This document shows positions 157 through 16,196 of a DNA stretch of 16,196 nucleotides, piece by piece. The DNA is from a virus, in IMG/VR virus record IMGVR_UViG_3300045988_105695, positions 1 to 16,196 of that record. One strand, written 5' to 3'. Under the pieces are notes generated by a model, which had not been told where the DNA came from, did no database searches, and was given only the letters and a program-made list of their open reading frames with translations. Position numbers and translations under genes: made by a program. Numbering within the stretch: position 1 is the stretch's first letter; each line of letters begins with the position of its first letter.

Positions 157-273
157 TGTTAGTCATTTACCTAACCGAACTTTACAGAAAAGTCAAGTAA
201 CAACCAACACTTACAGAAGATTTACACTATTCCTTTCTATAATATAATACACCATATATAATAGAATTGCAAA

Positions 274-2059: not shown

Positions 2060-2070
2060 AAAATCACCTC

Positions 2071-2769
2071 TTAAAATAACTGATAAAATAAACCATATGC
2101 CATCATCTCATCATAAAGAGATGTTTCTAAAGTAATAATTGCGTCACGAGAACCCTGTAACACTTCTGCTAAAGTCTGCACGCCAATGTTACCGGATCTG
2201 TGAAACTTATACTTTTCAGTCCCTTCTGAATCTGTCTGTGAATTAGGTTCTGAAATTGATTGTGCGATACTGTCAACATATCCCGTACTTTCTAAGTCAA
2301 TTCGCCCCTGTGGTGTTGCACTTGTAAGGTTTGTTGCTTTGTCCTTTCCACTTGCTTTACTTCTTCCTGTTGTTCCTCTTTCGTATTCTTCACTATATTC
2401 CGTGTTCCACGTTGGATTTTCCTGGTCTTGGAAAGGAATCGTTTTAAATAGACTGTAATATCTTGGCATATTCACAATCATCCAATGACGTAATTCAAAT
2501 TTCCAATATTCATAAGTTTCTTGTCCAATTTCATCAAAGAAAAAATGTTGAATGATTCCTGTTTCTAGTGCTTTTTTCTTTTCTTCCATTTCATTTGTAT
2601 CATTGTAAAATTCATAATCAAAATCAAAAATCTTCTTTCTTGCCATTTCAATAATTTCGTCACGTTTCAATTCATAGTTACTTTGTAGTCTTTCAACATT
2701 TGTAAGCGCGTCACATAATTTACTTAACATCATGGTGTATTTACTCATTGTCTGCATTTTGGTCACCAC
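2071..2769 (-). CDS. Lower collar protein (phi29 gp11-like), assigned mainly by synteny
   Basis: 232 aa. It lies immediately downstream of, and overlaps by 29 nt, the connector gene, as gene 11 follows gene 10 in phi29. I did not recognise any catalytic motif. Confidence 0.6.
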   Translation of the reverse strand: MVTKMQTMSKYTMMLSKLCDALTNVERLQSNYELKRDEIIEMARKKIFDFDYEFYNDTNEMEEKKKALETGIIQHFFFDEIGQETYEYWKFELRHWMIVNMPRYYSLFKTIPFQDQENPTWNTEYSEEYERGTTGRSKASGKDKATNLTSATPQGRIDLESTGYVDSIAQSISEPNSQTDSEGTEKYKFHRSGNIGVQTLAEVLQGSRDAIITLETSLYDEMMAYGLFYQLF

Positions 2770-3664
2770 CTTTTGAAATGTCTAAATCAATAGAATTGTT
2801 GTTTACTTCAATCATATCTAAAATATCGTTATAGGCTCTAAAAGATACTTTCACATTTGTTCCATATTTTTCATTTAGTTTTTTGACAAACTTTTCTCGT
2901 TCTGATAACCAAATATTACGCGACGAAATAATCTGTGTATTGTTGGCATTGACTTCTGCACTCTGCACACGTTCCTTTTTGTCTTGGTTAGCGTTGTCAA
3001 TTCCTAGTAAAGTCATACATTCTCTAAGTATAGATTGTTTTAAAACGTTGACACTTTCTGCAACCCACGGTGCCTGTGTTGGTAGTACGTTTATACTATT
3101 TAAATCAAAGTTTGACCACGTGAATATGGTTTTAACGCCTTTTCTTACTTGGTCGATAAAATTTTGAAACATGGATTTCATGCGCTTATCGCCCGCTATG
3201 ATGTAAGGTGTCCACTGCGCATCTAAGTTAACGTCAATAGTACGGGAACACAGGGAAAGTTCACGTGCATAATAGTTGATAAAGGGAATCGTACCTACGA
3301 AAAGCGGACTGTTTTTACACAACACAACCTCGTCCAAAGAATAATCTTTTGTCAATTCTCCCGTCGGGTCAACTCCTCTAAAACTTGTTGGTAGATAATA
3401 GTGATTGATTCGTCCGCCCATGGCGCACTCCAAAGCGGTCAGTCCAAAGATATCATCATTCACAATAATCAAGAAACCTCTTGTTTGTAAAATATATTCC
3501 AAATAAAATTCGTCAATCGATTCGGGCAAGTTTTCGTATTGAAACATATTCAAAGATATCTGTAGTAAATAGCTTTGATATATGTTTTCTGTTTCAAATG
3601 TTTCCATATTCGCATAATCTGTCGGACTTTTTGAATAGTTGAATAAATTTCTTCTTTGTGACAT
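2741..3664 (-). CDS. Head-tail connector / upper collar (portal) protein, phi29 gp10-like
   Basis: 307 aa (phi29 gp10 is ~309 aa). [23 protein letters not shown] resembles phi29 [50 protein letters not shown]...[15 protein letters not shown] resembles phi29 [30 protein letters not shown]...KINELYGLNVKVKFR (from memory). Confidence 0.92.
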   Translation of the reverse strand: [307 protein letters not shown]

Positions 3665-3668
3665 ACTA

Positions 3669-5882
3669 TCACACTCCTTTCTTGTGACTCAAAATAGAGC
3701 CGTATTTGTCAACCTGTGTCGGGTCTGTCAACTCGTCATTGTTTAACGTATAGTTCGCAATATCTTTCGTGTGCCACAATGTAATTCCGTTGTCAAAGCA
3801 CTGTTTGATACGTTCCAAATCAACAACATCAATGTCATGGCTTACAATGTTACACTTTACCGTCTGAATATAGTTCCAACTTTTTCTTGTGTGTAAGTTT
3901 GGTAATTCTACCAAATTTGTTGCATAACCTCGAATCGTAAATGATAATTTAGCACGGTTTTTATATTCATCTGTAGGAACGAAAAACATAAGTTTTGGTG
4001 TTAGTAAATTTAAAGATAGCATTCGATACACATCATTAGAACCACTTACTAAAGTGTCAGCTGTAGCTTTTGCGTCATTTATTCTTGCTCGGTAGGAATC
4101 AATAGCATTTTGTATATTAGTTTGTCCTTGGTACCTTGTGGCTGCGTTTCTTAATTTGTTCATAACTGCAATACTTGCATTGTTGGCTTGGTTTGTAGCA
4201 CCTACATTTTGCCATGCGTTTGTTGTCTGAGCGCTTAGCCTTGCATTGTTAGCTTGCATTTGATTGTAAGTATTTGCTCCACTTTGCAACTCACTTCCAA
4301 TAGCCTGTCCCCCTGTAAATAAAGCACCAATACCGGTATAAGTGATAGGATTTGACAACATTCCTCCCATAGAACCACCAACACCATTGATTAAGTAAGA
4401 ATTTGCTAACTGTTCATTTGCTATTTCATTCAAACTTTTATTCATTTCTGTATTATAGCCTGTCTGTTGTAAGCGTAAATTATTCTGAATAGCTCCCTGT
4501 TGTGTCATGGCACTTCCTGTCATACTAGCAATCGTGTTTGCCGTTTCTGTATTTCGTATTGTATTCGATACACCCACGTTCATTGAATTCTGCGAACTTT
4601 GCAATAATACCGCTGTATAGTCTGACACAATAGGCAATGTCATTTCATATCCATCTTCAAAAGAATCTGCTAAACCATCTAAAATAAATGAGCCTTTATT
4701 TTTAACTTTATAATTGATTGGTATATAATCTGATTTTGAACTTCCAATCGTTCCAATCGCATAAAATTCAACGTCTTGAGGATTTTCCCAAATCTCATTT
4801 TTATAGACTTTATATGTCCCATTGAAATTAGTTAGTGTTGTAAAACTAAAAGGATAATTAAAAAGTTTACTTTCTTTTTCGTAAATTACATTATTTATTT
4901 TAACACTAAAATACGTTAATAAATCGATTCCGTCTGTTTTTTCAACTAACTCTCCACCGCTTATATAATCAAACGATGATACGCTAGGAATTAAGAGAGA
5001 TAAACCACTTTCAGATGTCCATTTATACATGCTCCCGTCAAATAAAGCATTTCCGTTTGAATCTGCTTTTATACCGATTAAACTGTTCAATACTTTAATA
5101 CTCACGCATTTGTTTACAAAATTCTTATCATTTCTTATTTTCTCATAGACTTCGTTAAAAGATGATAATTGTGCTGTTGCTCCGTCTTTACTGTTTTTAA
5201 CAGTCATTTTTGAAATTGTTCCTAAACTTCCATTGAATGGAAAAATATAATTTCTTAAAACAGTCGGAACACCTTGTTCAAAGTTTGACCATTCGGAGTT
5301 ATCAAATCCACTTGTCATAGTAACCACAATATAATTGAGTTCGTGCTGTTCGGAAAAAATATTCACAACACTGTTGCATACCATTTCCGTTCCTAATTCG
5401 ATATTTTCGGGCTGTGTATTTACACAAGGCAACAAATTCCCATTTGAATTATACCACCTGTCACGGTGTTCAAAAGCAATATAACTCGGTAAAAAAGAAT
5501 CTTCAATTTCAAAGCGCCATGTCTGCATTACGTCTGTTTCAAAAGAAATGGAACAAACAGAATCACTCACATAGCCCACTTGTGTGATAAAACAGTAAAT
5601 CCATTTACTTCCAGCTCCGGCTTTTCGGTTTTTGTAAATCATATAATTGTATTTTCTGATTTCGTCAAAATCACCTTCGATATTGACTATACCATTTACA
5701 CGCTGATATGTAAAATCATTAAATACTTTATGCTCAAAGTTATTCAAGAAAAAGTTTAATTGACTTTCTTTATCTTCATATACACCCCAGTAGGTGTTGT
5801 TCATAGCGTCACATTCAACGCCCTTTAGAATATAAATTTTTGTTTCTGGCGTAAACTGATTGTTATAAACTCCAATGGTCAT
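3669..5882 (-). CDS. Tail knob protein, phi29 gp9-like, with an expanded Q/N/G-rich internal region
   Basis: 737 aa. The N-terminal KWIYCFITQVGYVSDSVCSISFETDVMQTWRFE matches phi29 gp9 [33 protein letters not shown] (from memory). RBS aaagaggtg lies 5 nt upstream of the ATG. Confidence 0.9.
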   Translation of the reverse strand: MTIGVYNNQFTPETKIYILKGVECDAMNNTYWGVYEDKESQLNFFLNNFEHKVFNDFTYQRVNGIVNIEGDFDEIRKYNYMIYKNRKAGAGSKWIYCFITQVGYVSDSVCSISFETDVMQTWRFEIEDSFLPSYIAFEHRDRWYNSNGNLLPCVNTQPENIELGTEMVCNSVVNIFSEQHELNYIVVTMTSGFDNSEWSNFEQGVPTVLRNYIFPFNGSLGTISKMTVKNSKDGATAQLSSFNEVYEKIRNDKNFVNKCVSIKVLNSLIGIKADSNGNALFDGSMYKWTSESGLSLLIPSVSSFDYISGGELVEKTDGIDLLTYFSVKINNVIYEKESKLFNYPFSFTTLTNFNGTYKVYKNEIWENPQDVEFYAIGTIGSSKSDYIPINYKVKNKGSFILDGLADSFEDGYEMTLPIVSDYTAVLLQSSQNSMNVGVSNTIRNTETANTIASMTGSAMTQQGAIQNNLRLQQTGYNTEMNKSLNEIANEQLANSYLINGVGGSMGGMLSNPITYTGIGALFTGGQAIGSELQSGANTYNQMQANNARLSAQTTNAWQNVGATNQANNASIAVMNKLRNAATRYQGQTNIQNAIDSYRARINDAKATADTLVSGSNDVYRMLSLNLLTPKLMFFVPTDEYKNRAKLSFTIRGYATNLVELPNLHTRKSWNYIQTVKCNIVSHDIDVVDLERIKQCFDNGITLWHTKDIANYTLNNDELTDPTQVDKYGSILSHKKGV

Positions 5883-5911
5883 GTTATCACCTCTTTATCT
5901 TTAGTTTAACA

Positions 5912-5948
5912 CAAAAATAAAAAGAATGATACATTGATTGTATCATTC
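5912..5948 (-). terminator. Intrinsic terminator after the tail lysin gene
   Basis: Perfect 10-bp stem gaatgataca (5924-5933) / tgtatcattc (5939-5948) with a 5-nt loop. On the minus strand it is followed by tttttattttt. The lysin stop codon (5943-5945) lies inside the stem. Confidence 0.7.
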
Positions 5949-7439
5949 AAACTGCAATAAATAATCATACAATTCCTGTGCTTTTGTTCCTCGTTCCGGT
6001 TGGTTCGGGTCAAATGGCCTTTCGTAGTTTGCTAGAAATTCAATAGCACACGTATACGTGTTTTTTGTGGTTGTCGAATACTCTCGAAAACTTTCGGGGT
6101 AAGTGGCTGTAGCAATCCATTGTTGATTGTTTTCCATTTCCCATTGTATCCTATCACATTCCGCTTGTCCAAATTTTGATACGTCATTTAATCCTACCTG
6201 TTCCTCTAACCAACTGATAATCTTTGTATAAGGTGTCCACTGAACAAGTCCAAATCCCCATTGATCGGGTGGCTGATGCCATGGGTCATCCCCTTGCCAC
6301 CGGTTTGGATTCACGGTTGATTCATACCATGCATTACCCAAGATTCCGCAAACTGCATTAAGACTCCAACCTTTCGCTTTAAAATAAGACCAAAATACTT
6401 TACAGTTATTCAAAGCTTCTTCTTCGTTCAGTGGTCTAGTACTATTGATTGTTCCCGGAATTATCCATTCTCCTGTTGGTGGTTCCGGTTCTGGATGTTC
6501 TGGTTCTTCACTTGCTTTTTTCATTAGGAAAATGTCAATTCCCATTCCGTCCATAAATAATGGAATATATTTATTTTTTGTTGGTTCCGGTTCGGGTTCT
6601 GGTCCAGGTCCACCGCCCTCATACGTTGCAAAATTTAAACCTAAGGTTTGTACAATATTTGTATCATTTATAAAATAAATTTTTGTTGGGTCTGTTGATC
6701 CTTGTAGTGCATAACATAAATTTCCATATGAACACGTCACACCAAAGCTAACATTTCCAACATTAGGAATTGTACTTTGGTCTAAATGGCAGTGGTCTCC
6801 TGTAACATTACCGCTTGTTCCCGTGTGCGCTATAACTTCCCCCTGTTTAAAACTCGTCTTGGTAGGAGGGTTATTTTGGTGAGTAAAACAAACAGTGACA
6901 TATCCTAATGTCCACCCGTTCCCGTTCGGTGTTGCATACCAAACAGGATTATCACTTGTATAGCTGCGTTCGTTTCCGTCTGACCAACTCCAAACTAAAT
7001 GGCAACTAAATGGCGCATATAAAGGATATTCAGCCGTATTACCTACTATGTCGATAGGATGTCCACAACAATGGCTTAAACTACTTGGCCCGCTCACCTG
7101 TGTGATATATAACATATCCATAGGAAAAAGGCAGACTTCGTGTCCATCACTTGCAACTAACGTTTGTCCAGATTGCACTCCAACATCAACTCCTCTCACT
7201 AAATTATGTAAATAAATATGATTCAATTCATAGTAAAAAGATAGATTTACTAATAAAGAAAAAGAGAAAAGAAAAGCTACAATCGCTTTAACTTTTCCCT
7301 CAATAGGTTTGCTTTTTGGTGTAGTCCGCATTTTTCGCATAGCTTTATAAAATACATATACGATTCTTCTAACTGTTCGGTATTTAACCCTTGTAAACTG
7401 TTGGGAATTTCGCTTGGCTTTTTGATTCTGTATAACCAT
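5943..7439 (-). CDS. Tail-associated peptidoglycan hydrolase: M23 (LytM-type) endopeptidase domain + Pro/Glu linkers + C-terminal phage-tail-lysozyme-like domain (functional analogue of phi29 gp13)
   Basis: 498 aa. The M23 signature is GEVIAHTGTSGNVTGDHCHLD (HxH), with an upstream SHCCGHPIDI. Linkers are GGGPGPEPEPEPT and EEPEHPEPEPPTGE. The C-terminal AVCGILGNAWYESTVNP matches the GILGN..ES motif typical of the phage tail lysozyme family. The start is uncertain: in-frame alternatives are M34 and M37, and there is no good RBS at any of them. Confidence 0.85.
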   Translation of the reverse strand: MVIQNQKAKRNSQQFTRVKYRTVRRIVYVFYKAMRKMRTTPKSKPIEGKVKAIVAFLFSFSLLVNLSFYYELNHIYLHNLVRGVDVGVQSGQTLVASDGHEVCLFPMDMLYITQVSGPSSLSHCCGHPIDIVGNTAEYPLYAPFSCHLVWSWSDGNERSYTSDNPVWYATPNGNGWTLGYVTVCFTHQNNPPTKTSFKQGEVIAHTGTSGNVTGDHCHLDQSTIPNVGNVSFGVTCSYGNLCYALQGSTDPTKIYFINDTNIVQTLGLNFATYEGGGPGPEPEPEPTKNKYIPLFMDGMGIDIFLMKKASEEPEHPEPEPPTGEWIIPGTINSTRPLNEEEALNNCKVFWSYFKAKGWSLNAVCGILGNAWYESTVNPNRWQGDDPWHQPPDQWGFGLVQWTPYTKIISWLEEQVGLNDVSKFGQAECDRIQWEMENNQQWIATATYPESFREYSTTTKNTYTCAIEFLANYERPFDPNQPERGTKAQELYDYLLQFE

Positions 7440-7466
7440 GACATATCACATACTTTTTTCATATTC

Positions 7467-8024
7467 TTAAACTGTTACAAAATAATGTCCAATCAGCTGG
7501 TCCGGTGTGTAGAATAACTTAATTGTTCCGCCGTCTGGTTCTCCCCTACGTTCACAATGATATAACACGTCATTCCATTTGTAATATTTTCCATATGTGT
7601 ATAAGCATCCATTGTGGGCAATATCATTATCGACAATAACAACAGGATTTGCCTGTGTTCCGCTTTCTACCTTTGTTGTCGGATTAATAATATCTACAAG
7701 GCTCGGCGCATTTTCGGTTGTTAAAGTTTCTCCGTCCGGAATCACATTCAAGACCATTGCATTGATTGTGTTTACGATTTCTTTTTCCAAAACATTCACT
7801 TTTTCTTTTTTGTATTCTTTATAGAAGTCTTCTTTATCATCAATTTTTTTTAAAACATTATCTTTCACATACTTATCAAATAAATTTTCAAAGGATTCTA
7901 ATTCAACTTGAACGTCATGCGCTTCTTTTTCAATCTCAACATTAGGATTGTAAATAGTTACTTTGTCCATTGTGGCAGTAAAAATACAACCTTTATCATC
8001 AATTTTTAAATTCATATTCAACAC
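7467..8024 (-). CDS. Hypothetical protein (probable virion/tail accessory protein)
   Basis: 185 aa. It is tightly packed between the tail fibre and tail lysin genes. The N-terminal half is acidic and K/E-rich (coiled-coil-like). The C-terminal part is a small Cys/aromatic-rich module (NGCLYTYGKYYKWNDVLYHCERRGEPDGG). I do not recognise a family. Confidence 0.55.
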   Translation of the reverse strand: MLNMNLKIDDKGCIFTATMDKVTIYNPNVEIEKEAHDVQVELESFENLFDKYVKDNVLKKIDDKEDFYKEYKKEKVNVLEKEIVNTINAMVLNVIPDGETLTTENAPSLVDIINPTTKVESGTQANPVVIVDNDIAHNGCLYTYGKYYKWNDVLYHCERRGEPDGGTIKLFYTPDQLIGHYFVTV

Positions 8025-8029
8025 CCCTT

Positions 8030-9193
8030 TTATTTTTTAACATATAAAAATGAAATATAAAAGATATTATACCAATTTTGGAATCCCATTCCTATATTTA
8101 CTTTTATTTTGTCTTTGTTGATTGTTGCTTGAACGGAACCACTAATAACATCATTGACACTTGAGGCTGTGGTACTTCCGATTACATTCAGCGGGTAAAA
8201 ATAAAATTCTGCTCCGACACTATAACTTTTCGCTGACCATAAACAGGAACATTCATCAAAAAATGCAAAACTAGTTTGTGTGAAATCAAAACTATAATCA
8301 CCTTCCCGACTAGCGTTTGACAAGTCAATTTTACAATAACGCCTATAAATCGGTTTTCCGTCTATCCATTTTAAACCCGTATCGATTTCTTTATTTTGAT
8401 TATATTCAAAGAAATTATTCATTTTTACAATGGTGTCATTTAACTTTTTTCCTTGGTTGGCACTTAACGCTTTATTGGCTGCTGTGGTTGTCAAGTTATC
8501 TACAATATCTTTATCTTCCAATAAATTGTAATTTGTTGTGCCTTGGTAGTTTGTTATTGTCGGATGTTCATCATTTTCGGTAAAGTATGCACCACTTTCA
8601 ATTTTATTTTGTATTTTACTAACACTTAAGTTTAAATCTTCTAAATCTTTTTCCACTAATAAATCCTGGTTTTTCGAACCATCATACCAAACAGGTCTTT
8701 TTTCTGAGTGAACAACCGCCTGTGCATTGTCATCTCCAATCTGTGTATAGTCATCCGTTCCCGTATAACTATGACTAACCATATTTACTTTTTTCCCAGA
8801 ATGTAAAGTCCCATAAACACCTTTGTCCTCTTGAAACTGTAAATCTCCGGACATAACATCTCCGGCTTTATTCACTTTTTGATTCCACAATGGATTTTGT
8901 GCAATAATCTCATTTAATGTTCCGTCTGACTTCCATTGATTTAAAATTTCCTGTGTTTTTTCGTTGGCGATTTGTGAAATATTTTCTGTAATATAATCCT
9001 CAAAATTGTTCCAATCGGAAATCAAATCATCCATACTTTTATATGTAATTTGCACATACCCCTGTAAATAAACCAAAGCCTCATAGATATTCATACCATT
9101 GTTAAATGCGGACATATAATTGGAACTTAAATTTCCAACATCCGGTAAAGGTTTAAATTCCGGTAAATTATTCATTTGTTCCACCTTCTTCAT
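8030..9193 (-). CDS. Tail fibre / receptor-binding appendage protein
   Basis: 387 aa. It carries tail-fibre-type motifs: KAGDVMSGDLQF (similar to GGTMTGxL) and TTTAANKALSANQGKKLND. It lies in the late structural block. Confidence 0.75.
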   Translation of the reverse strand: MKKVEQMNNLPEFKPLPDVGNLSSNYMSAFNNGMNIYEALVYLQGYVQITYKSMDDLISDWNNFEDYITENISQIANEKTQEILNQWKSDGTLNEIIAQNPLWNQKVNKAGDVMSGDLQFQEDKGVYGTLHSGKKVNMVSHSYTGTDDYTQIGDDNAQAVVHSEKRPVWYDGSKNQDLLVEKDLEDLNLSVSKIQNKIESGAYFTENDEHPTITNYQGTTNYNLLEDKDIVDNLTTTAANKALSANQGKKLNDTIVKMNNFFEYNQNKEIDTGLKWIDGKPIYRRYCKIDLSNASREGDYSFDFTQTSFAFFDECSCLWSAKSYSVGAEFYFYPLNVIGSTTASSVNDVISGSVQATINKDKIKVNIGMGFQNWYNIFYISFLYVKK

Positions 9194-9428
9194 TCTTTAA
9201 GTCTAAAATCGTGTCAATTTTTGTGCTTAGCTTTTCCATAACGATTGTGTTATTCTCTATCGTCTTTGTCAGTTCCTGTGTTTCCGCTTTATGTGAGCTA
9301 TTCAGTTCTTCAATTTCACTTTTATGTTGGTCATTTAAGTACTTGATATAATACCCCATAACTAAACACATGCAAATTGGGAAACCTACAGTACTGATAA
9401 CCTGTACAATTGCATTGACTTCATCCAT
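9168..9428 (-). CDS. Holin-like protein, BhlA/UviB family type (single N-terminal TM + charged coiled-coil tail)
   Basis: The TM segment is AIVQVISTVGFPICMCLVMGYYI, followed by a K/E-rich helix. This is the same layout as BhlA/UviB holins. I prefer the ATG at 9428 (MDEVNAIV..., 86 aa) because AAGGAGA lies 9 nt upstream. The ORF-track start at 9467 has no RBS. Confidence 0.65.
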   Translation of the reverse strand: MDEVNAIVQVISTVGFPICMCLVMGYYIKYLNDQHKSEIEELNSSHKAETQELTKTIENNTIVMEKLSTKIDTILDLKNEEGGTNE

Positions 9429-9482
9429 GTTCCATAATCTCCTTTCTTTCTCCACAATAAACATCATGGATTTTACAATTAC

Positions 9483-9491
9483 ATTATATCA
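9483..9491 (-). promoter_or_regulatory. Extended -10 promoter candidate (TGaTATAAT) for the holin/tail genes
   Basis: The minus strand reads tgatataat immediately after the capsid terminator T-tract. There is no clear -35. Confidence 0.45.
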
Positions 9492-9518
9492 AAAATAAAA
9501 GGGGTTTACACCCCTTTT
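9491..9518 (-). terminator. Intrinsic terminator after the major capsid gene
   Basis: The minus strand reads AAAAGGGG-tgtaaa-CCCCTTTT followed by ATTTTT. It starts 6 nt after the capsid stop codon. Confidence 0.75.
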
Positions 9519-9523
9519 TGTTT

Positions 9524-10876
9524 TTACGCTGTGATAACAACCTGTAAAATAGCCTGTACTTCAGAAGTAGTGTCTTTCACTGTAATTGTTTTCAATCCGG
9601 TTGTGGCAGTTCCTGTGGCACTCACTGTCATACTTCGTTTATCGTCACTCAGTGTTGCGGTAACTTCGCTGTTGGCTGAACTTGTCGCTGTGATACCGTC
9701 TTCGCTTACGTCAACACTTGTCTTAGTCACATCAATAGCAACTTTAGTAGACTGATTTGCTTTTAATACTACGGACTGTGGTTTAACCTCAATGGCTGAC
9801 ACCTTTTCTTCCGGTGTTCCACTTACAAAAGCAATCGCATTCGCAAAACGTGAAGTGGCAATAGATTCCCAATGATGTAACCAATAGTTCCAATAAAGCC
9901 CCTCTGCATTGTATTTAGTAGTAACATTGTACTTTTGGTCAAATACTCGATAGATTTCACTATCGACTAACAGTGCCTCAATCGTTCCATTCTCTGTACT
10001 TGGCAAAGTAGGAATCACTAACACATGAGTTTTAAAGCTAGCAACGTCTAATTGGAAAGTCTGTGCTAACCATTCAATGTTCAAGTAAGAATTGGATTTT
10101 CCTGTCAAAATAATATACAGGTCATCCATTTCATTTTGTTTTGTTACACCCATGGCATTATATTCGTCTGTTGGCTCTGTCAAATAGCTTGCGTATTCTG
10201 TCAACTTCTGCGCCAAAGCTTTTGCACTGTCTGCGTCCTGTACAGCACTATTCAATTTGACAATTTTCATATGTCCATTTTCATAATGGGTTGCAAGTGC
10301 TGATTTCATGTAATTGTAATCGTCTTTATTGTCACCATTGTACAAAGCGTCAACGATACGAGCAATCAAAGATGTTACACCGTCCCATGTCACAAAATAA
10401 CTTCTCAAATCATCATCCGTGATGGTCTGTTTGTAGTACGATTTACGATTTACAATGTAAAATACATTTTTAATGTCTGGAAGTTCACGCTTAAACTGAT
10501 TTGTTTCTGCCTGTTCTTGGTTGTACTCGTGTTCTTTTGCCACGTCAACAAAATATTCTTCCATTGTATAACCTAACGGCATATCTGCCATTTTAAAAGG
10601 TGCTAATTTGTTGGTAATAATATTTTTGTGGGCAATCGAACGTCCAATTCGTGTTGCTAACGTAATCCATTCGGTCGCTAGTGTATCTGGATACTGCAAT
10701 AAACCGTCCATAAAGTCTAGCGAGTTTACTTCATACGGGTCGCCAACGGTACTTCTTAAATTCGGACTTGCACTTGCATACATAGCATGTGCAACATCCA
10801 CGCTTTTTGGGGTAACGTCTGCCCCTGTTGATTCTTGAATTGCACTTAATACTTGTGCTCTTGTTGTTTTTGCCAT
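9524..10876 (-). CDS. Major capsid protein (phi29 gp8-like) with C-terminal Ig-like (Big_2-type) domain
   Basis: 450 aa (phi29 gp8 is ~448 aa). It follows the scaffold gene. The C-terminal ~90 aa (VSAIEVKPQSVVLKANQSTKVAIDV...TITVKDTTSEVQAILQVVITA) has the alternating T/S/V beta pattern of bacterial Ig-like domains, as in phi29 gp8. Confidence 0.88.
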   Translation of the reverse strand: MAKTTRAQVLSAIQESTGADVTPKSVDVAHAMYASASPNLRSTVGDPYEVNSLDFMDGLLQYPDTLATEWITLATRIGRSIAHKNIITNKLAPFKMADMPLGYTMEEYFVDVAKEHEYNQEQAETNQFKRELPDIKNVFYIVNRKSYYKQTITDDDLRSYFVTWDGVTSLIARIVDALYNGDNKDDYNYMKSALATHYENGHMKIVKLNSAVQDADSAKALAQKLTEYASYLTEPTDEYNAMGVTKQNEMDDLYIILTGKSNSYLNIEWLAQTFQLDVASFKTHVLVIPTLPSTENGTIEALLVDSEIYRVFDQKYNVTTKYNAEGLYWNYWLHHWESIATSRFANAIAFVSGTPEEKVSAIEVKPQSVVLKANQSTKVAIDVTKTSVDVSEDGITATSSANSEVTATLSDDKRSMTVSATGTATTGLKTITVKDTTSEVQAILQVVITA

Positions 10877-10888
10877 AAAATCACTCCT

Positions 10889-11164
10889 TTAATCTTTTAA
10901 CATTTTTGAGATATCTAAGCCTTTGTTTTCAGTTTTTGTTTCGGGTTTATTTTCTACACCCAAACGCATAAACAATTTTGAGTTTGCCTCGACCAGAGAT
11001 CCATTTCTCTCCTGTAAATTGGAAACTTGGCTCGAAAGTTCGTCAATGCGTTCATATAATGCATTTGTTTCCGTTCGGACTTCGTCCAGCATGGTTGATC
11101 GTTCCGCTCTGTCATCAGTCTCCAAAATCTGTGACAACTGTTGTTCCATTTTCTCACGTTCCAT
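10889..11164 (-). CDS. Scaffolding protein (phi29 gp7-like)
   Basis: 91 aa, highly charged and helical/coiled-coil. It is the first late gene, directly upstream of the capsid gene. RBS GAAAGGTG lies 6 nt before the ATG. Confidence 0.72.
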   Translation of the reverse strand: MEREKMEQQLSQILETDDRAERSTMLDEVRTETNALYERIDELSSQVSNLQERNGSLVEANSKLFMRLGVENKPETKTENKGLDISKMLKD

Positions 11165-11184
11165 AACATCACACCTTTCCTAAC

Positions 11185-11196
11185 ATTATAATATCA
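11185..11196 (-). promoter_or_regulatory. Late promoter candidate: overlapping -10 elements (TGaTATTAT / TATAAT) without a recognisable -35
   Basis: The minus strand reads atgatattataatgttaggaaaggtgtgatgttATG. At 17-bp spacing the -35 position is ttcttt, which is part of the upstream terminator T-tract. Confidence 0.45.
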
Positions 11197-11211
11197 TGTT
11201 TTATTTAAAAG

Positions 11212-11243
11212 AAAAGAAAAAAGACGCTTTTAACGTCTTTTTT
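11212..11243 (-). terminator. Intrinsic terminator ending the early region / small RNA
   Basis: The minus strand reads AAAAAGACG-ttaaaag-CGTCTTTTT followed by tcttttc (stem 11218-11226 / 11234-11242). Confidence 0.8.
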
Positions 11244-11370
11244 CTAAAATCAAATGGCCAAAGTAGCATAAACTGTCATACTAGATTCATTACTTCTACA
11301 TCGGGTAGGAGGATTTTACGCCTAATGAACCCCACCAACGAAAGACAGACTTCATCTATGCACCTTGTAC
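11212..11370 (-). ncRNA. Candidate prohead/packaging RNA (pRNA); structured core about 11256-11370, 3' extension ends in the terminator
   Basis: It has its own promoter and terminator and no credible ORF. Hand folding gives a 5'/3' closing helix, a three-way junction, a bulge UUCAUUA (DNA 11323-11329) and a hairpin loop containing UAAUGAA (DNA 11286-11292). These two are perfectly complementary over 7 nt. Its position downstream of the polymerase and a small ORF matches phi29. The 3'-arm 9-mer GCUACUUUG is identical to the phi29 pRNA as I recall it. Confidence 0.68.
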
Positions 11371-11374
11371 TTTT

Positions 11375-11402
11375 ATTATAACTTATTTTAATTCTTTTTC
11401 AA
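11375..11402 (-). promoter_or_regulatory. Sigma-A-type promoter of the small RNA
   Basis: The minus strand reads TTGAAA (11402-11397), a 16-nt spacer, then TATAAT (11380-11375). It lies within the 3' end and stop region of the 70-aa ORF. Confidence 0.65.
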
Positions 11403-11595
11403 TATCATCAAACGCTTTTTCGCATACCCAATCTTTTAATTGTTTATTTCTGCGTTTTGTATTCAAAAACAATCGCACTGCTTTTTCTTTTTTAGGTATA
11501 AAAACAGTAAATCGTTCATACTTACTTTTATGATGTCTGTTGATATAATCATAATTTTTCTTTTTATCTTCGTTTGATTTTGAACTTTCTGTCAT
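11383..11595 (-). CDS. Small basic protein, possible ribbon-helix-helix DNA-binding protein
   Basis: 70 aa from the ATG at 11595 (AAGGGGG lies 11 nt upstream). The ORF-track start at 11607 is a GTG sitting on the RBS. The pattern ERFTVFIPKKEKAVRLFLNT..NKQLKDWVCEKAFDDIEKEL fits strand-helix-helix. This is a weak inference. It overlaps the polymerase 3' end by 32 nt. Confidence 0.45.
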   Translation of the reverse strand: MTESSKSNEDKKKNYDYINRHHKSKYERFTVFIPKKEKAVRLFLNTKRRNKQLKDWVCEKAFDDIEKELK

Positions 11596-13384
11596 ATAAT
11601 ACAACACCCCCTTTTACGTGTGCTTTTTTCAAACAGTCGGGCACTTCATTACCTACTCTGAAATTATTAAAGGTGATATTCTGTTTCGCTTTTTCTGTCA
11701 TGCCAGAGCATTTTACATTTAAACGATAACAAACACCGTCACGCATATAATATAAATTATCTTTTTTATCATGGTCAAAAATATATTCTTTCTGATGATC
11801 GTTGTAATCTTTATAGCTTATCTCAATTTCTTCAATGTAGGCTTTTGCACCTATAAAATATGCTCTTTTAAATACACTTTCTAAACCCCAATACCCTAGT
11901 TCTTTATCGTCAATGATATGTTCAATTTCTTTCGGTATTTCTGTTCCGACTAGGTGTATGCTATCCGTGTCGATATAAGCAACACGATTGATTCCTACTT
12001 TTTGCGCAGTGGTTATTGTGTACTTTCTAGCATAGGCGGTAACAAACGCACCGTAAGGCAAGTAAATAGGGTCACGTTCCTGTTTGTCTTCTACTTCTTG
12101 CACTTTCCCATTTTTGTATGTTGTGTACGTTGGTAGTTTTGTTTTTAAAACACCACTATCATCCAAATAAGGTATTTTTGGAGTGACGTCTGGATTTGTT
12201 GCAAACTTTCCGTAAACACTATTCATTTTTCGTTTTGCAATAAATCGTTTCACTCCACGCTCTTTCTTTTTAACTTCCATACATTCATCAATAAATTTGT
12301 TGGCAATTCCCACAACACCTTTAAATTTATAGCCACTGTACCAATTCACATCATATACATCATACTGTTCATTTATAAGTTCCCAATCAACGTTCGTTAA
12401 AACCATGGTTACAACATCACCGCCACTTGACTTCACATATTTTTTACTCCCAAACATAACACTAAATCTATCCAAACTGATACATTCAATATGTTCTTTT
12501 TTCAATTCAAAACCAAAGGAAACTTTACAAATCCATAAAGGATACAATTCTGTTTTTTGTGGTGCTCCTGTAAAAAATACAGGCGAACCATATGGCAATA
12601 GTTCTTTGTACATTCGACTTGGATATAGACTATTCACATCAAATACAATTCCCTCATTAATTACTTTCTCTTTAAATCGTTCGTTTGCCCAAACAAAACC
12701 ACCCATATAACTAGGTCTTATATCTTTATCAGTTTCTAAGGAAATTACAGGAAATATTTTTTCAAAATCGTCTGGCAGTGTTTCTTTAAAGGCTTTGAAA
12801 CTGCTTGCAGTGGCGGTCATTTTATCAAAACCCTCATTAAAGCACTGTTGTAAAGCCATAGCTATAATGTCGATGTCATTAAACAAATAGTCTTTTTCTA
12901 GTGGTGTGAGTTCGTGTCCAATTTCCCTAAATTCGTCATAGTCGATTTTTAGTTTTCGTATCGGTAACTTAAAATCAATGGCAATCTGCTCCACACTAAA
13001 TGGAATCAATTTCAAACTATCCCAAATAACGGTTTTTGTAGTGTGCTTTCCTTTCACACTCCAATAGATCTCTATGCAATACCAAAGTCCCTGCTTGGAT
13101 ATAATAGTTTTAAAAGCATTTGTTTTTGGTCTGTCTGTGTATTCAAATCCATTTGATAAAAGCCACGACACAATAAATTCCCCGTCAAATGCCAAATTGT
13201 GAAAATATAACTTTTTATTCTGATTCGATATCCAATCGATAAAACTTTGCATTGTATTTCCATAATATTTCTTTTCAACATCAAATACATTGGACGCTCC
13301 CCATGCCCATACTCTACAGTCATTCGGGTTTGTGGTTGTTTCAAAGTCACAACTCCAAACCTCATTTTTTCTTTTTCTTGCCAT
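11564..13384 (-). CDS. Protein-primed family-B DNA polymerase (phi29 gp2-like)
   Basis: Motifs: ExoI SCDFETTT..DCRVWAWG, ExoII FHNLAFDGEFI, ExoIII YLFNDIDI, motif A VFDVNSLYPSRMY, motif B KRKMNSVYGKFA and motif C AYIDTDSIH. All are near-identical to phi29 polymerase motifs. The start at 13384 (MARKRKNEVWSCDFETTT) aligns to the phi29 N-terminus. The ORF-track start at 13453 is an in-frame upstream extension. 606 aa. Confidence 0.97.
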   Translation of the reverse strand: MARKRKNEVWSCDFETTTNPNDCRVWAWGASNVFDVEKKYYGNTMQSFIDWISNQNKKLYFHNLAFDGEFIVSWLLSNGFEYTDRPKTNAFKTIISKQGLWYCIEIYWSVKGKHTTKTVIWDSLKLIPFSVEQIAIDFKLPIRKLKIDYDEFREIGHELTPLEKDYLFNDIDIIAMALQQCFNEGFDKMTATASSFKAFKETLPDDFEKIFPVISLETDKDIRPSYMGGFVWANERFKEKVINEGIVFDVNSLYPSRMYKELLPYGSPVFFTGAPQKTELYPLWICKVSFGFELKKEHIECISLDRFSVMFGSKKYVKSSGGDVVTMVLTNVDWELINEQYDVYDVNWYSGYKFKGVVGIANKFIDECMEVKKKERGVKRFIAKRKMNSVYGKFATNPDVTPKIPYLDDSGVLKTKLPTYTTYKNGKVQEVEDKQERDPIYLPYGAFVTAYARKYTITTAQKVGINRVAYIDTDSIHLVGTEIPKEIEHIIDDKELGYWGLESVFKRAYFIGAKAYIEEIEISYKDYNDHQKEYIFDHDKKDNLYYMRDGVCYRLNVKCSGMTEKAKQNITFNNFRVGNEVPDCLKKAHVKGGVVLYDRKFKIKRR

Positions 13385-14138
13385 TTTGATTCTTAAATTT
13401 ATTGAGTGATGTTTGTATTTGACGTAATTCCAATGATTTATTATTATCTCCAATGCCTAAGTCTTCATACCTAAAAGCGTCTAAGCTGGATTGCTCCTGA
13501 TAAAACCACGTGATAAATTGAGCAACGCTCATGTTCTTTATATTTTTCGACATTTCTCGAAACTGCTTTGACGTCAAATTGCCTTTTTTCTTTTGTTTCC
13601 TTATCGCTTTTATATAATTTTTCTGTAATAGTTCTTGCTTTTTCGTTGGATTTTTTGTGTTTCTTTTTAACGTCTTGATTCTCTTTTCTAACTGTTTTTT
13701 TGATGAATAACTATCGATATTTACGTGTTTTATATCGGTAAATAAACTACTTTTATCATCTAAAACTAACCCGGTGGCTCTTCTCACTGTGATATCCTGT
13801 GCAATACCTCCAACGGTCTGTGGTAGGTCACCTATTTTATTTGCCAACTTCCTTTTTTGTCTATTCTGTTTGTCAATCAATCTATTTGCCTCACGTATAT
13901 CTTTTCTGTTAAAAACTACGTTTCTGTCATTTTTGTAATATTGGTTGTTTAAAATAAATCGTTCTGCCTGTCTTTTATATTTATTCAGTTCTTCACGTGT
14001 TTTAAAACTCATATAATTACGTGTTGTAAATTCAATATCGACACCCATATTTTTTGCTTTTGTTACCGTTCTTTTAATACTTTCATTTAAATTTCTAAAA
14101 GCTACCTGGTCTTTGTAAGACCGTCTTATTTTTGCCAT
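13362..14138 (-). CDS. Terminal protein (phi29 gp3-like)
   Basis: 258 aa from the ATG at 14138 (GAAAGGA lies 9 nt upstream; the track start at 14156 is a TTG). It is very basic. NMGVDIEF..SFKTREELNKYKRQAERF resembles phi29 TP KYGVDLTAE..SFETRAQFNKWKEQASSF (from memory). It lies directly upstream of, and overlaps, the polymerase gene. Confidence 0.85.
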   Translation of the reverse strand: MAKIRRSYKDQVAFRNLNESIKRTVTKAKNMGVDIEFTTRNYMSFKTREELNKYKRQAERFILNNQYYKNDRNVVFNRKDIREANRLIDKQNRQKRKLANKIGDLPQTVGGIAQDITVRRATGLVLDDKSSLFTDIKHVNIDSYSSKKQLEKRIKTLKRNTKNPTKKQELLQKNYIKAIRKQKKKGNLTSKQFREMSKNIKNMSVAQFITWFYQEQSSLDAFRYEDLGIGDNNKSLELRQIQTSLNKFKNQNGKKKKK

Positions 14139-14161
14139 TTTAACACGTCCTTTCAAATGGT

Positions 14162-14191
14162 AAAAATAAAGGGTGCCATTGTTGACACCCT
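14162..14191 (-). terminator. Weak intrinsic terminator / attenuator between the SSB and terminal protein genes
   Basis: The minus strand reads AGGGTG, a 10-nt loop, CACCCT, then ttattttt (stem 14170-14175 / 14186-14191). Confidence 0.45.
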
Positions 14192-14198
14192 ATAAATC

Positions 14199-14585
14199 TT
14201 ATTCGTTGACAACAAATGTCAAATATTTATTGTTTGAACTAAAGGACTTTTTCTGAATCGGTGTAATTACGAGTGGTTTTTCGTTCCAATCGTATGTAAA
14301 CACCTGTTTAGCTAAATTCATTGCGTCAATAAAACTATTAGAGTTTGTCGCATAGGCTTTACCGAAATCATCAATCACAGTAATAATTTTGCGAACTTTC
14401 ACTTCGCCTGTTTTTTCGTCTAAGTCCTCTTTTTCCTGTACAAAATAACCGATAATTGGAATAGCTTGTCCTACCATATCGGAAAGACTTGCTTCTGCAT
14501 TATTCAAAGCGTTAAATAGTTTGACTTTATCGCTTTCCTTAACATTCATTAAATTTGTTCCTTTTGTTTCCATAACTTCGTTCAT
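14199..14585 (-). CDS. Single-stranded DNA-binding protein, phi29 gp5-like
   Basis: 128 aa (phi29 p5 is ~124 aa). LFNALNN..., ...KIITVIDDFGKAYATNSNSFIDAMNLAKQVF and ...YLTFVV are collinear with phi29 p5 IFNAQTGG..., [31 protein letters not shown] and ...VFFSLQL (from memory). RBS AGAGGT lies 7 nt upstream. It is located just upstream of TP and polymerase. Confidence 0.6.
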   Translation of the reverse strand: MNEVMETKGTNLMNVKESDKVKLFNALNNAEASLSDMVGQAIPIIGYFVQEKEDLDEKTGEVKVRKIITVIDDFGKAYATNSNSFIDAMNLAKQVFTYDWNEKPLVITPIQKKSFSSNNKYLTFVVNE

Positions 14586-14683
14586 AAATTTACCTCTTTT
14601 CTATGTTATTCTATTTGACCAAACCTAAGCAATATGTGCACCAAAAACAACATATTATTTTTGTATTTTACATTTTATCACCC

Positions 14684-14926
14684 CTAACTATCTATATCAA
14701 TTTCATTTAATGATAACTGTCTTATAACTGAAATAAATATTTCTTCAACATCTCCACCAAAAGGATTTATTAATTCTAAGTTATAAACGAAAGCTTTTAA
14801 ACCGTCTGCATTAACTTCTAAGACATCTTTTTTCTTTCTTATATTTACTTTTCTATAACCTCTAATATGTAACTCATATTTTAAAACATCCTTTAAGTAA
14901 TTAACAGTATATTCAATTTGATTCAT
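14684..14926 (-). CDS. Hypothetical early protein (80 aa)
   Basis: The ATG at 14926 is preceded by GGAGG with a 5-nt spacer. The ORF-track TTG start at 14938 overlaps that RBS. I do not recognise a family. Confidence 0.6.
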   Translation of the reverse strand: MNQIEYTVNYLKDVLKYELHIRGYRKVNIRKKKDVLEVNADGLKAFVYNLELINPFGGDVEEIFISVIRQLSLNEIDIDS

Positions 14927-14927
14927 A

Positions 14928-15089
14928 TTAACCTCCAATTCTTGGCAACATTGACCAATCTATACTATTTCCAATCCAACACCATATAACTAATAAACCT
15001 AACAGGAATGTGATTCCAACAAAAGCGATTAGAACCAGCTTGCAAAAAGCAAGCCATAACAGATATATATTTTCTTTCAAGTTTTTCAT
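14928..15089 (-). CDS. Unannotated small hydrophobic membrane protein (53 aa)
   Basis: My translation: MKNLKENIYLLWLAFCKLVLIAFVGITFLLGLLVIWCWIGNSIDWSMLPRIGG. Its ATG overlaps the upstream gene's stop (ATGA at 15086-15089). Its TAA stop (14928-14930) is 1 nt from the next ATG. It exactly fills an otherwise empty 147-nt gap. It is below the 60-aa track cutoff. Confidence 0.6.
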   Translation of the reverse strand: MKNLKENIYLLWLAFCKLVLIAFVGITFLLGLLVIWCWIGNSIDWSMLPRIGG

Positions 15090-15382
15090 TGTAAATACAC
15101 ACTTTCTAGTTCTTTACGCAAGTAAAATAAATGCGTTACACCAAATACATCAAACGAACCTAATATAGCGCTTGAACCTGTCTTGTATAAAACAAATCCT
15201 TTCAAGTTTCCTTTGTTGCTGTACATACAATAGACTTTAAATGAATGTGCCTCGTTTATTCGTAATCTAGGATATTTAGTTTTCACTTCCTGTAAATAAT
15301 CAATGAACTTTTCCGCCCATACTCTAGCATTGATTCTGTCGACATCATTCTTTGCTCTTAAACACATAATTTTTCCATCCAT
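15086..15382 (-). CDS. Hypothetical early protein (98 aa)
   Basis: RBS AAGAGGAAA lies 6 nt upstream of the ATG. It is the first gene after the second early promoter. I do not recognise a family. Confidence 0.7.
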   Translation of the reverse strand: MDGKIMCLRAKNDVDRINARVWAEKFIDYLQEVKTKYPRLRINEAHSFKVYCMYSNKGNLKGFVLYKTGSSAILGSFDVFGVTHLFYLRKELESVYLQ

Positions 15383-15404
15383 TTTATTTTCCTCTTTCTT
15401 TTTT

Positions 15405-15440
15405 CAATTACATTGTAGTACAACTATAATTGATTGTAAA
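15405..15440 (-). promoter_or_regulatory. Early promoter P2 (TTTACA-17-TACAAT), a paralogue of P1
   Basis: On the minus strand the -35 TTTACA is at 15440-15435, the spacer is 17 nt, and the -10 TACAAT is at 15417-15412. The module shares about 31/36 positions with the P1 module, including the spacer TTATAGTTGTAC. Confidence 0.7.
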
Positions 15441-15445
15441 CACTT

Positions 15446-15586
15446 TTAATAAATATAATCAATTTCACTTGCAATAGAGGTGATCGTTACACCTCTTGAC
15501 GTTTGATAGAAGTAATAGACACCGCTTAGCTGCTCATAATATTTACAAGTAAATTGCGTACCGTCTTTTAATCTAACCGTATACAT
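15446..15586 (-). CDS. Unannotated small ORF (46 aa), hypothetical
   Basis: MYTVRLKDGTQFTCKYYEQLSGVYYFYQTSRGVTITSIASEIDYIY. AAGGAG lies 8 nt upstream of the ATG at 15586. It fills the gap before promoter P2. Confidence 0.45.
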   Translation of the reverse strand: MYTVRLKDGTQFTCKYYEQLSGVYYFYQTSRGVTITSIASEIDYIY

Positions 15587-15735
15587 ATTTCATACTCCTT
15601 TCTTATTTTTAATTTTAAATCAAGTAGACTCATAAACACATCATAATCATCAATATAATTTTCCATTTCAGCATTTAATGCACAAAGAATAGATTCAACT
15701 TCAATAGGTGATAATTGTAACTTGACTTTCTTCAT
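15568..15735 (-). CDS. Unannotated small acidic ORF (55 aa), hypothetical
   Basis: MKKVKLQLSPIEVESILCALNAEMENYIDDYDVFMSLLDLKLKIRKEYEICIRLD. AGGAGG lies 8 nt upstream of the ATG at 15735. It overlaps the next small ORF by 19 nt. Confidence 0.55.
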   Translation of the reverse strand: MKKVKLQLSPIEVESILCALNAEMENYIDDYDVFMSLLDLKLKIRKEYEICIRLD

Positions 15736-15800
15736 TTTGTTTACCTCCTAATATAATCTCCTATAAAATAGTGTTTTAAGTGTTATCGCTTCACTGTTTT

Positions 15801-15992
15801 TTAATCATACCATCCTAAATTATGTTCTTTAATGTATTTCTTGTACGCTTCAATCATTGTTTTATTGAAGAACACATCTTGTTCCGATCTAATAACTGCT
15901 CTACCTAATGCTTCAAAAACATTTGTTCCTAATACTTCTATTTCATACTTAACTGCTTCATAACACGCTTCTAAACTATAATCGTATTTCAT
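15801..15992 (-). CDS. Hypothetical early protein (63 aa), first gene of the early operon
   Basis: AAGGAGGA lies about 6-7 nt upstream of the ATG. It sits about 40 nt downstream of consensus promoter P1. Confidence 0.7.
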   Translation of the reverse strand: MKYDYSLEACYEAVKYEIEVLGTNVFEALGRAVIRSEQDVFFNKTMIEAYKKYIKEHNLGWYD

Positions 15993-16027
15993 AAATTTTC
16001 CTCCTTGGCTTTCACCTTACCTCTTTA

Positions 16028-16063
16028 CAATTATATTATAGTACAACTATAAATTATTGTCAA
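16028..16063 (-). promoter_or_regulatory. Early promoter P1, perfect sigma-A consensus
   Basis: On the minus strand TTGACA is at 16063-16058, the spacer is 17 nt (ataatttatagttgtac), and TATAAT is at 16040-16035. Confidence 0.85.
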
Positions 16064-16152
16064 ACAATTTCGCATTATTTTATCGAAATTCTAACTTGTA
16101 CTTCTCCCCTACCTATGCTATACTATTTATGGAATCAGTAGGTATTTCTTTT

Positions 16153-16196
16153 CATTCCCTCCCTTTCGCCAGTCACTTGATACACGGTGGCTGGCA
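16153..16196. repeat. Right inverted terminal repeat (inner 44 bp only; the window ends inside it)
   Basis: It is the exact reverse complement of 113-156. The window terminates where the left copy continues for a further 112 nt. Confidence 0.85.

Follow-up and report, generated by a model that had tools for sequence, protein, structure and literature searches.

The viral DNA considered here, record IMGVR_UViG_3300045988_105695 of IMG/VR (positions 1 to 16,196; hereafter the window, with a length of 16,196 nucleotides, nt), carries on its minus strand, at 11215-11402, a self-contained transcription unit made up of a promoter, a structured domain of ~113 nt, a short linker, and an intrinsic terminator. 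We conclude, with a probability of about 0.88, that this region encodes a genuine, highly divergent prohead or packaging RNA (pRNA), which is homologous to those of GA-1, Nf/M2, and phi29 and would work as the phi29 molecule does. Transcription signals, a covarying secondary structure, two co-varying loops, homology to known pRNAs, and genes for the partner proteins are all in evidence. A packaging pRNA had been proposed for this place in a preliminary description of the DNA, and the computational tests suggested there all came out in favor of it except for a scan with the Rfam model. As far as sequence can tell, nearly every defining feature of the pRNA family is found, and the failed test is that narrow model. 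A 2024 review confines pRNA to phi29 and the Bacillus phages related to it (PMC11476376). In the literature searched, the pRNAs established by experiment and those predicted all belong to Bacillus phages, the proposal for Cp-1 aside (PMC11476376, PMC5066667, PMC6266182, PMC9965433), and a report of pRNAs in phi29-like phages of gut metagenomes was not found there. We report that pRNA, for which Bacillus phages had been the sole documented source, is also common among the phi29-like phages that inhabit human and animal guts.

BLASTN with the RNA against about 170 related loci reached the closest subgroups only, because the RNA sequence diverges too fast. A MAFFT alignment across clades misplaced the 3' half, and alignments based on covariance models (CMs) were used instead. 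Scanning with a hand-written structural descriptor placed the cores of the window and of two related loci (L002 and L005) near the top, together with many false positives in AT-rich DNA. Three CMs were built, the E-values of which are rough. The first, R1, was derived from a single MAFFT-aligned subgroup from which the window was excluded. On that alignment RNAalifold returned, unguided, a three-way junction of the phi29 type, and R1 gave full-length, same-strand matches downstream of the polymerase gene in 51 loci. These 51 sequences, none of which belongs to the clade of the window, were used to build R2. Its top match in the whole window (both strands, filters off) was 11256-11369 (-), with 23.8 bits and E~5e-4, and the structural elements in this alignment were all in register with the fold drawn in the preliminary description. 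The clade of the window (L001, L013, and L014) scored 28-30 bits with the same model. The second-best match, at 15434-15562 (-) in the early region among small open reading frames (ORFs), had 12.5 bits and an E-value of about 0.4, and is most likely noise. R3 was derived from 12 representative sequences, among them members of the window clade. With this model the RNA was found in 149 metagenomic and viral loci, always downstream of the polymerase gene and on the same strand as it, and 4 further matches were obtained in contigs of metagenome-assembled genomes (MAGs).

Homology to established pRNAs was found from either side, as R3 finds the established molecules and R2, which contains no member of the window clade, finds the window RNA. 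R3 matched the GA-1 pRNA at 1765-1881 (-) (annotated at 1719-1879) with 43 bits and an E-value of 1e-6 to 8e-8; with filters off, it matched the Nf pRNA at 173-290 (-) (annotated at 120-290) with 22.5 bits and the phi29 pRNA at 203-320 (-) (annotated at 147-320) with 18.8 bits. All three matches are full-length, with 5' ends 0-2 nt from the annotation. GA-1 (NC_002649, misc_RNA 1719-1879, group III of the phi29 family) is the best-scoring known relative. Its pRNA aligns element by element with that of the window through the A helix, the C-E arm with its bulge, and the D hairpin, and the two have a GUAAAA motif in the head loop in common; a run of four A residues reported in the GA1 E loop (PMC4201828) agrees with this motif. 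As in the window, the GA-1 gene has its own promoter directly upstream (11/12) and is not located at the extreme end of the genome. The likeness in gene order to phi29 (polymerase, small ORF, RNA) that had been pointed out holds for the annotated records of phi29, Nf, and GA-1 alike. In phi29 and PZA (RF00044), the series of polymerase, small ORFs, promoter A1, and RNA is that of the window, and in Nf, ORF J overlaps promoter A1 just as the 74-amino-acid (aa) ORF of the window overlaps the pRNA promoter. Echoes of phi29 helix A, which had been pointed out as well, are real: comparison with the phi29 sequence set its 5' strand UCAAUGGUAC and 3' strand GCUACUUUGAUAA beside the window counterparts CAAGGUGC and GCUACUUUGG, and GCUACUUUG is the same in both 3' strands. 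The same kind of evidence (CM, promoter and terminator, and synteny) is behind the predicted pRNAs of other Bacillus podoviruses, such as the Goe4 group, and behind the pRNA proposed for Cp-1 (PMC6266182, PMC9965433). The latter, from a Streptococcus phage, is a long-standing proposal unconfirmed by CM (PMC6266182, PMC9965433).

The helices of the predicted fold covary strongly. In an alignment of 69 sequences (61 distinct rows), 88.7% of the cells form standard pairs, versus 64.5% in column shuffles and 30-41% when the 3' partner was slid by 1-3 columns. The covariation score was 0.58, versus 0.18 in column shuffles and at most 0.12 with slid partners. The sequences are related, so shuffle controls overstate the significance; the slid-partner control and the cognate/non-cognate control described below mitigate this. 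Compensatory changes were seen in 42 of 44 pairs, among them 13 of 14 in the A helix (helix 1), eight of nine in the C helix (helix 3; 95% paired), which RNAalifold finds independently, and all four pairs in each of the E helix and the D hairpin (helix 6). The structure that RNAalifold itself predicted on the multi-clade alignment comprises the A helix, the C-bulge-E arm, and the D hairpin; of its 29 pairs, 25 are compensatory. The subgroup alignment made with MAFFT only contained 10 compensatory pairs. Similar changes occur even within the window clade, the members of which are 94-97% identical (RNA numbering takes the G at 11370 as position 1). C23-G94 is replaced by A-U in L014, a compensatory double change; in L013, G15.U100 is replaced by G-C and the C51/U58 mismatch by a U.G pair. 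The check proposed at the outset, an alignment of related phages, thus yielded conserved helices with abundant compensatory changes and two loops that co-vary.

Such changes also bear on whether the region might be protein-coding, or a mere spacer with a terminator and promoters, a view to which we give hardly any credence. The gap holds no conserved ORF, in line with the preliminary statement that a credible one is lacking; the sole ORF across it is antisense, starts with ATG, and spans 61 aa (11196-11381, +). A coding function would draw on this ORF, which spans the region, and on the fact that the 112-nt core is often open in one of six frames by chance; a six-frame stop-codon test on the core was uninformative, most cores being open in some frame by chance. 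All genes, however, are on the other strand; the ATG of this ORF is lost in L001, and in L013, which is 95% identical to the window, the ORF is frameshifted by the same 1-nt deletion that the C helix tolerates. Substitutions in the region track base-pairing, not codons. As for a spacer, 42 covarying pairs would not persist in one across phages with polymerases only about 40% identical.

The contact between the bulge of the C-E arm and the loop of the D hairpin is outside every CM, and provides a separate line of evidence for a pRNA. The bulge UUCAUUA and the D-loop segment UAAUGAA form 7 contiguous Watson-Crick pairs, exactly the complementarity that had been described; when a bulge of 7 nt and a loop of 9 nt with the same composition were shuffled, the probability of a 7-pair run was 0.008. 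Both are, as had been noted, close to the phi29 loops (a right-hand loop at about 42-48 and a left-hand loop at about 79-85 around a three-way junction), with the same structural position and the geometry of phi29 A45-C48/U85-G82. In every clade, the 3'-most nucleotides of the bulge, directly next to the E helix, can pair with the 3' portion of the D loop, and this complementarity is kept while the sequence changes. At least 11 bulge/D-loop variants were recovered: UUCAUUA/UAAUGAA in the window, UUACU/AGUAA in the L019 clade, UGCAU/AUGCA in L002, GUAU/AUAC in L051, UGUAA/UUACA in L083, UUGCU/AGCAA in L003, AACAU/AUGUU in L005, UUUUC/GAAAA in L061, GUCA/UGAC in L078, and, out of sample, GUUA/UAAC in L173 and ACCAC/GUGGU in L185. 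With one representative per clade, cognate loops form a mean of 4.6 contiguous pairs and non-cognate loops 2.4. Not one of 200,000 permutations reached the observed sum (p~5e-6), and the same applies when the window is excluded. When the contact was entered as a pseudoknot, five of five pairs were compensatory and 89.5% of cells were paired. The loop complementarity of the pRNA family is therefore present in the window and in its relatives.

Known pRNAs differ in the strength of this contact. The numbers of potential kissing pairs are two in GA1, four in phi29, M2, and B103, and five in SF5 (PMC4201828). GA-1, with its about 2 pairs, barely self-associates (PMC4201828), and the M2/Nf/B103 and SF5 pRNAs (4-5 pairs; PMC4201828) have the same architecture as the window RNA, with Bacillus hosts and a location at the left genome end. 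The window contact is the longest among those compared, but its seven pairs are A/U-rich (-3.7 kcal/mol), whereas the four pairs of phi29 contain G/C (AACC/GGUU, -1.8 kcal/mol). The variants, at least 11 in number, are mutually non-cognate, and some differ between close relatives (GCAU/AUGC versus GUAU/AUAC). A tentative and rather doubtful idea is that this bulge/D-loop "address" is diversifying under selection in co-circulating gut phi29-like phages, such that each lineage has a private ring, with the 7-pair contact of the window as one extreme. If this were true, a private pRNA ring would be proof against poisoning or hijack by a co-infecting relative, and the 7-pair contact might possibly give a more stable ring or a stoichiometry unlike that of any studied pRNA. 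As a separate observation, the bulge AAUUACU of the large L019 clade (RNA at 5106-5219 in L019) shows 6 nt of complementarity to the window D loop, AGUAAUGAA (11286-11294), and the latter contains the L019-type partner AGUAAU together with an extension. This match suggests a register shift in evolution and possible pairing across clades.

Several observations weigh against the identification as a pRNA. A search with the Rfam model RF00044, which had been recommended as a check, found no match in the window at the gathering score, nor at E<=10 on 301 nt, and none in eight related loci. This miss is uninformative on membership of the biological pRNA family, because the model also fails on the experimentally established GA-1 pRNA (no match at E<=1) and gives the experimentally established Nf pRNA 47 bits, under its cutoff of 100 bits, which the positive control phi29 passes with 145. 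RF00044 covers essentially only sequences of the phi29/PZA type, a gap in the database, and is too narrow to decide the matter. The narrow model R1 gave the window only 10.3 bits, though aligned in register. The R3 matches to phi29 and Nf are modest (E-values of 0.05 and 0.006 in 40 kb, from a rough calibration), and are persuasive mainly because the coordinates agree with the annotations. The counts for nested helices come from a CM-fitted alignment, which is biased towards the structure of the model. Moreover, the E helix of the window has only 2 pairs (with a C51/U58 mismatch), and C31-G72 or G10-C105 is lost in some relatives. The stability of the single-sequence fold is unremarkable, the minimum free energy (MFE) having z = -0.81. 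Folding, another check proposed in advance, bore out the pairs of the preliminary description: those listed for the helices 4-15/100-112, 23-27/94-98, 31-41/61-72, and 73-76/86-89 are all standard. The MFE structure differs: the pRNA fold has -22.7 kcal/mol and the MFE -27.8, i.e. 5 kcal/mol lower, with the two kissing segments paired in cis. The fold and the loop complementarity are real, but from a single sequence they prove nothing.

The cis pairing of both loop segments in the single-sequence MFE raises the possibility that the RNA is indeed a pRNA homolog, the 7-nt complementarity of which is an intramolecular pseudoknot that locks the three-way junction, with ring assembly being protein-dependent. 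No computation used here separates pairing in cis from that in trans, and strong RNA-RNA contacts in the ring are not universal, given that the GA-1 pRNA, with about 2 kissing pairs, shows no detectable multimerisation in vitro (PMC4201828). We nonetheless regard a pseudoknot as improbable. The homologous loops of phi29 are established as intermolecular partners (PMC2241910, PMC4201828), the pRNA ring of that phage is visible by cryo-EM (PMC6542822), and the window contact occupies the same structural position, joining the bulge nucleotides beside the E helix to the 3' portion of the D loop. The two loops are on different arms of the three-way junction, and a nested cis pairing would break the strongly covarying C and D helices. 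A pRNA with an intermolecular contact is thus the preferred reading.

In that reading, domain I contains all the expected elements: an A helix, a three-way junction, a C-E arm with a bulge, and a D hairpin (Table 1). The 5' strand of the A helix is interrupted by an asymmetric bulge of 7 nt (AUGAAGU), which is unpaired in the fold first drawn and in the family alignments. It occurs at the place of the C18-C19-A20 bulge in the 5' strand of the phi29 A helix, which is essential and is needed for ATPase function (PMC3479190). The sequence is not conserved, and the two bulges may be equivalent by position only. The head loop is nearly invariant: among 96 unique family members, 80 have GUGAAA and nine have GUAAAA (the window clade and GA-1 included), together 89 of the 96.

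The RNA domain is flanked by signals of its own. The near-consensus promoter read at the outset as TTGAAA-16-TATAAT matches the sigma-70 consensus at 11 of 12 positions, is the best site in 10800-11800, and is placed such that the stop codon of the 74-aa ORF (11385-11383) falls between the -35 and -10 boxes. The intrinsic terminator recognized in the same description is a hairpin of 14 pairs followed by a T-run. Both signals recur in the family: of 117 unique contexts, 103 have a promoter with at least 9/12 matches and a -10 box ending about 5 nt ahead of the RNA, and of 115, 102 have a terminator-like hairpin with a T-run, mostly starting 30-40 nt past domain I. A minus-strand transcript of ~155-160 nt that starts near 11370 had been anticipated; our prediction is a 5' end at 11368-11370, with a precision of about 2 nt, and an expected length of about 155-165 nt, in which domain I is followed by a short linker and then by a 3' hairpin. 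Such a transcript would resemble the phi29 pRNA, which is 174 nt long and has a dispensable domain II (PMC5066667), and the linker of the window is similar by position to the 13-nt linker between domains I and II in phi29 (PMC5066667). The RNA is therefore predicted to be transcribed on its own, as a small unit with an early-type promoter, located past the polymerase end of the early operon.

Table 1. Elements of the predicted pRNA unit and genes of the window (RNA positions count from G at 11370)
Feature	Position	Strand	Remarks
pRNA domain I, about 113-115 nt	11256..11370	-	R2 match 11256-11369; R3 82.5 bits
-35 box TTGAAA	11397..11402	-	pRNA promoter
-10 box TATAAT	11375..11380	-	pRNA promoter; 16-nt spacer to -35 box
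A helix 5' strand CAAGGUGCAUAG, positions 4-15	11356..11367	-	paired with 11259-11271
A helix 3' strand UUAUGCUACUUUG, positions 100-112	11259..11271	-	U106 bulged
Asymmetric 5'-strand bulge AUGAAGU, positions 16-22	11349..11355	-	unpaired
Junction-proximal A helix 5' strand CUGUC, positions 23-27	11344..11348	-	paired with GACAG 11273-11277
Junction-proximal A helix 3' strand GACAG, positions 94-98	11273..11277	-
C helix 5' strand, positions 31-41	11330..11340	-
C helix 3' strand, positions 61-72	11299..11310	-	C66 bulged
CE bulge ("right-hand loop") UUCAUUA, positions 42-48	11323..11329	-	one partner of loop-loop contact
E helix (2 bp) and head loop with GUAAAA, positions 49-60	11311..11322	-
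D hairpin, positions 73-89	11282..11298	-	4-bp stem, 9-nt loop AGUAAUGAA
"Left-hand loop" segment UAAUGAA, positions 79-85	11286..11292	-	complementary to 11323-11329
Single-stranded linker AUUUGAUUUU	11246..11255	-	between domain I and 3' hairpin
Intrinsic terminator hairpin and U-run	11205..11245	-	3' domain of transcript; 14-pair hairpin 11245..11215, then T-run
SSB		-	first in gene order
Terminal protein	13362-14156	-	follows SSB
Protein-primed DNA polymerase (PolB)	11564-13453	-
74-aa ORF	11383-11607	-	between polymerase and pRNA gap
Gene-free gap, 218 nt			between 74-aa ORF and scaffold gene
Scaffold	10889-11164	-
phi29-type major capsid protein	9524-10876	-	Phi29_MCP, 268 bits
Tail and lysis genes		-	between major capsid protein and GP10 connector in gene order
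GP10 connector	2741-3664	-	PF05352, 181 bits
Gp16 encapsidation ATPase	274-1290	-	PF05894, 211 bits

The location of the RNA, exactly at the boundary of early and late genes and beside a candidate late promoter (TATAAT, 11190-11185), would also suit a structured phage small RNA with another role, such as a regulator of the early-to-late switch or an antisense or decoy RNA, that merely resembles a pRNA. We hold this to be very improbable. The family model recovers the pRNAs of GA-1, Nf, and phi29 at their annotated coordinates, and in relatives with a phi29-like layout the RNA is placed at the end of the genome, a long way from the late promoter. In addition, docking of the Gp16-type ATPase depends on pRNA in phi29, and the genome of the window encodes an ATPase of that type.

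The partners of a pRNA are indeed encoded in the window. Assignments by PHROGs and Pfam profile matches provide a phi29-like gene set with a terminal protein, a protein-primed PolB, a GP10 connector, and a Gp16-type ATPase, the type without a separate nuclease-bearing large terminase; all genes are on the minus strand. The N-terminus of the connector, MSQRRN, is basic, as is MARKRS in phi29, which is the pRNA-binding segment of that connector according to Xiao et al. 2005 as cited in PMC9965433. The partner proteins, this basic N-terminus, and the near-invariant head loop indirectly support a role in ring formation and binding. By analogy with phi29, the RNA would be expressed, would pair between molecules in a ring, would bind prohead and ATPase, and would be required for packaging. 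Transcription of the pRNA would begin at a strong promoter of its own, where the early (replication) block ends, and would stop about 160 nt downstream, and the first ~113 nt of the pRNA would fold into a three-way junction of a long A helix with an asymmetric bulge, a C-E arm, and a short D hairpin. The bulge of one pRNA is likely to pair with the D loop of the next, and pRNAs so joined could encircle the prohead connector as a ring. Each head loop may contact the capsid, as U54-G55-A56 do in phi29 (PMC6542822), while the A helices would project outward and dock the Gp16 ATPase, which would translocate the terminal-protein-capped DNA.

The window RNA is nevertheless unlike the pRNAs studied so far in the length of its kissing contact, its very short E helix, its junction residues, its mid-genome position in a one-strand genome, and its habitat. 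The E helix of phi29 has 4 bp and a loop of UUGAGU, whereas that of the window has 2 bp around GUAAAA. Unpaired residues at the phi29 junction are UUU between C and D; in the window they are UUU between A and C and GUAU between D and A. In phi29 the D hairpin combines a stem of 6 bp with a loop of 5 nt, and in the window a stem of 4 bp with a loop of 9 nt. Each A helix has a 5'-strand bulge, and the two may correspond in position only. GA-1 has a soil Bacillus host and a divergent early/late layout, in contrast to the gut metagenomes and one-strand genome of the window.

These results place a pRNA in an uncultured 16-kb, one-strand, phi29-like gut phage, beyond the Bacillus phages, and their main value is that the pRNA family is extended to gut phages, with a natural catalogue of orthogonal loop pairs. 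About 150 syntenic homologs, from phages with polymerases only about 40% identical, offer a broader set for judging which pRNA features are essential, among them the invariant head loop, the G.U-rich end of the A helix, and the junction variants. RNA nanotechnology, too, could draw on them as a natural source of three-way junctions and of kissing-loop pairs that are orthogonal to one another. An RNA-dependent packaging motor would then be a general trait of the phage lineage rather than a Bacillus oddity, and there is a case for a broader Rfam model and for annotating pRNA genes in gut viromes.

The nearest cultured relatives of the window phage are M2, Nf, B103, and phi29, with 45-46% polymerase identity; megablast and blastn searches of GenBank phages revealed no close relative. 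Metagenomic polymerases form a graded series from 96% down to about 36% identity, and most of the near-identical and related contigs originate from metagenomes of the human gut and from MAG bins of gut samples. Colinear relatives have a gap of 220-240 nt without genes at the same position, and gene callers called no gene in the homologous gaps of relatives. In relatives with the divergent layout of phi29, 200-270 nt separate the polymerase block from the contig end. The RNA follows the polymerase block both in colinear genomes (the window, L002, and L003) and, near the contig end, in a phi29-like layout (L005). L005 and L007/L008 (polymerase identities of 60% and 49%) share this divergent layout, the contig ending beside the polymerase block; the L005 pRNA is at 4868-4978, about 130 nt from that end, and in L007/L008 no CM detected a pRNA, despite ~200 nt of non-coding sequence after the last small ORF. 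The additional relatives from genome collections (L172-L187) are all MAG-binned contigs from gut samples of human, rabbit, and yak. Their bins are mostly Clostridia/Bacillota, and also Bacteroidales, Kiritimatiellae, and others, and binning of such small phage contigs is evidently unreliable. The assignments are suggestive of Clostridia/Bacillota as the host, and are not decisive.

A few minor observations concern the remainder of the window. PHROG and Pfam searches gave no match for the 74-aa ORF, and relatives have one to three unrelated small ORFs after the polymerase. The polymerase ORF as listed starts at a TTG codon (13453; 629 aa). The true start is probably an ATG near 13384 (MARKRKNEVW...), because the homologs are shorter (604-612 aa) and align from about residue 24. 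The two ends of the window (1-60 and 16137-16196) share no inverted terminal repeat, and the true, protein-capped termini are for that reason probably absent from it; a contig related to the window at 95% has 16,983 nt. The TATAAT at 11190-11185 (-) upstream of the scaffold gene is without a recognizable -35 box, the -35 position being inside the T-run of the terminator, and could be an activator-dependent late promoter like A3 of phi29. Lastly, a strong G+C-rich hairpin with flanking A- and T-runs is located at 9490-9527, directly after the major capsid gene (end at 9524). It surfaced as a spurious "deletion" match of the CMs, and is probably a terminator inside the late operon.

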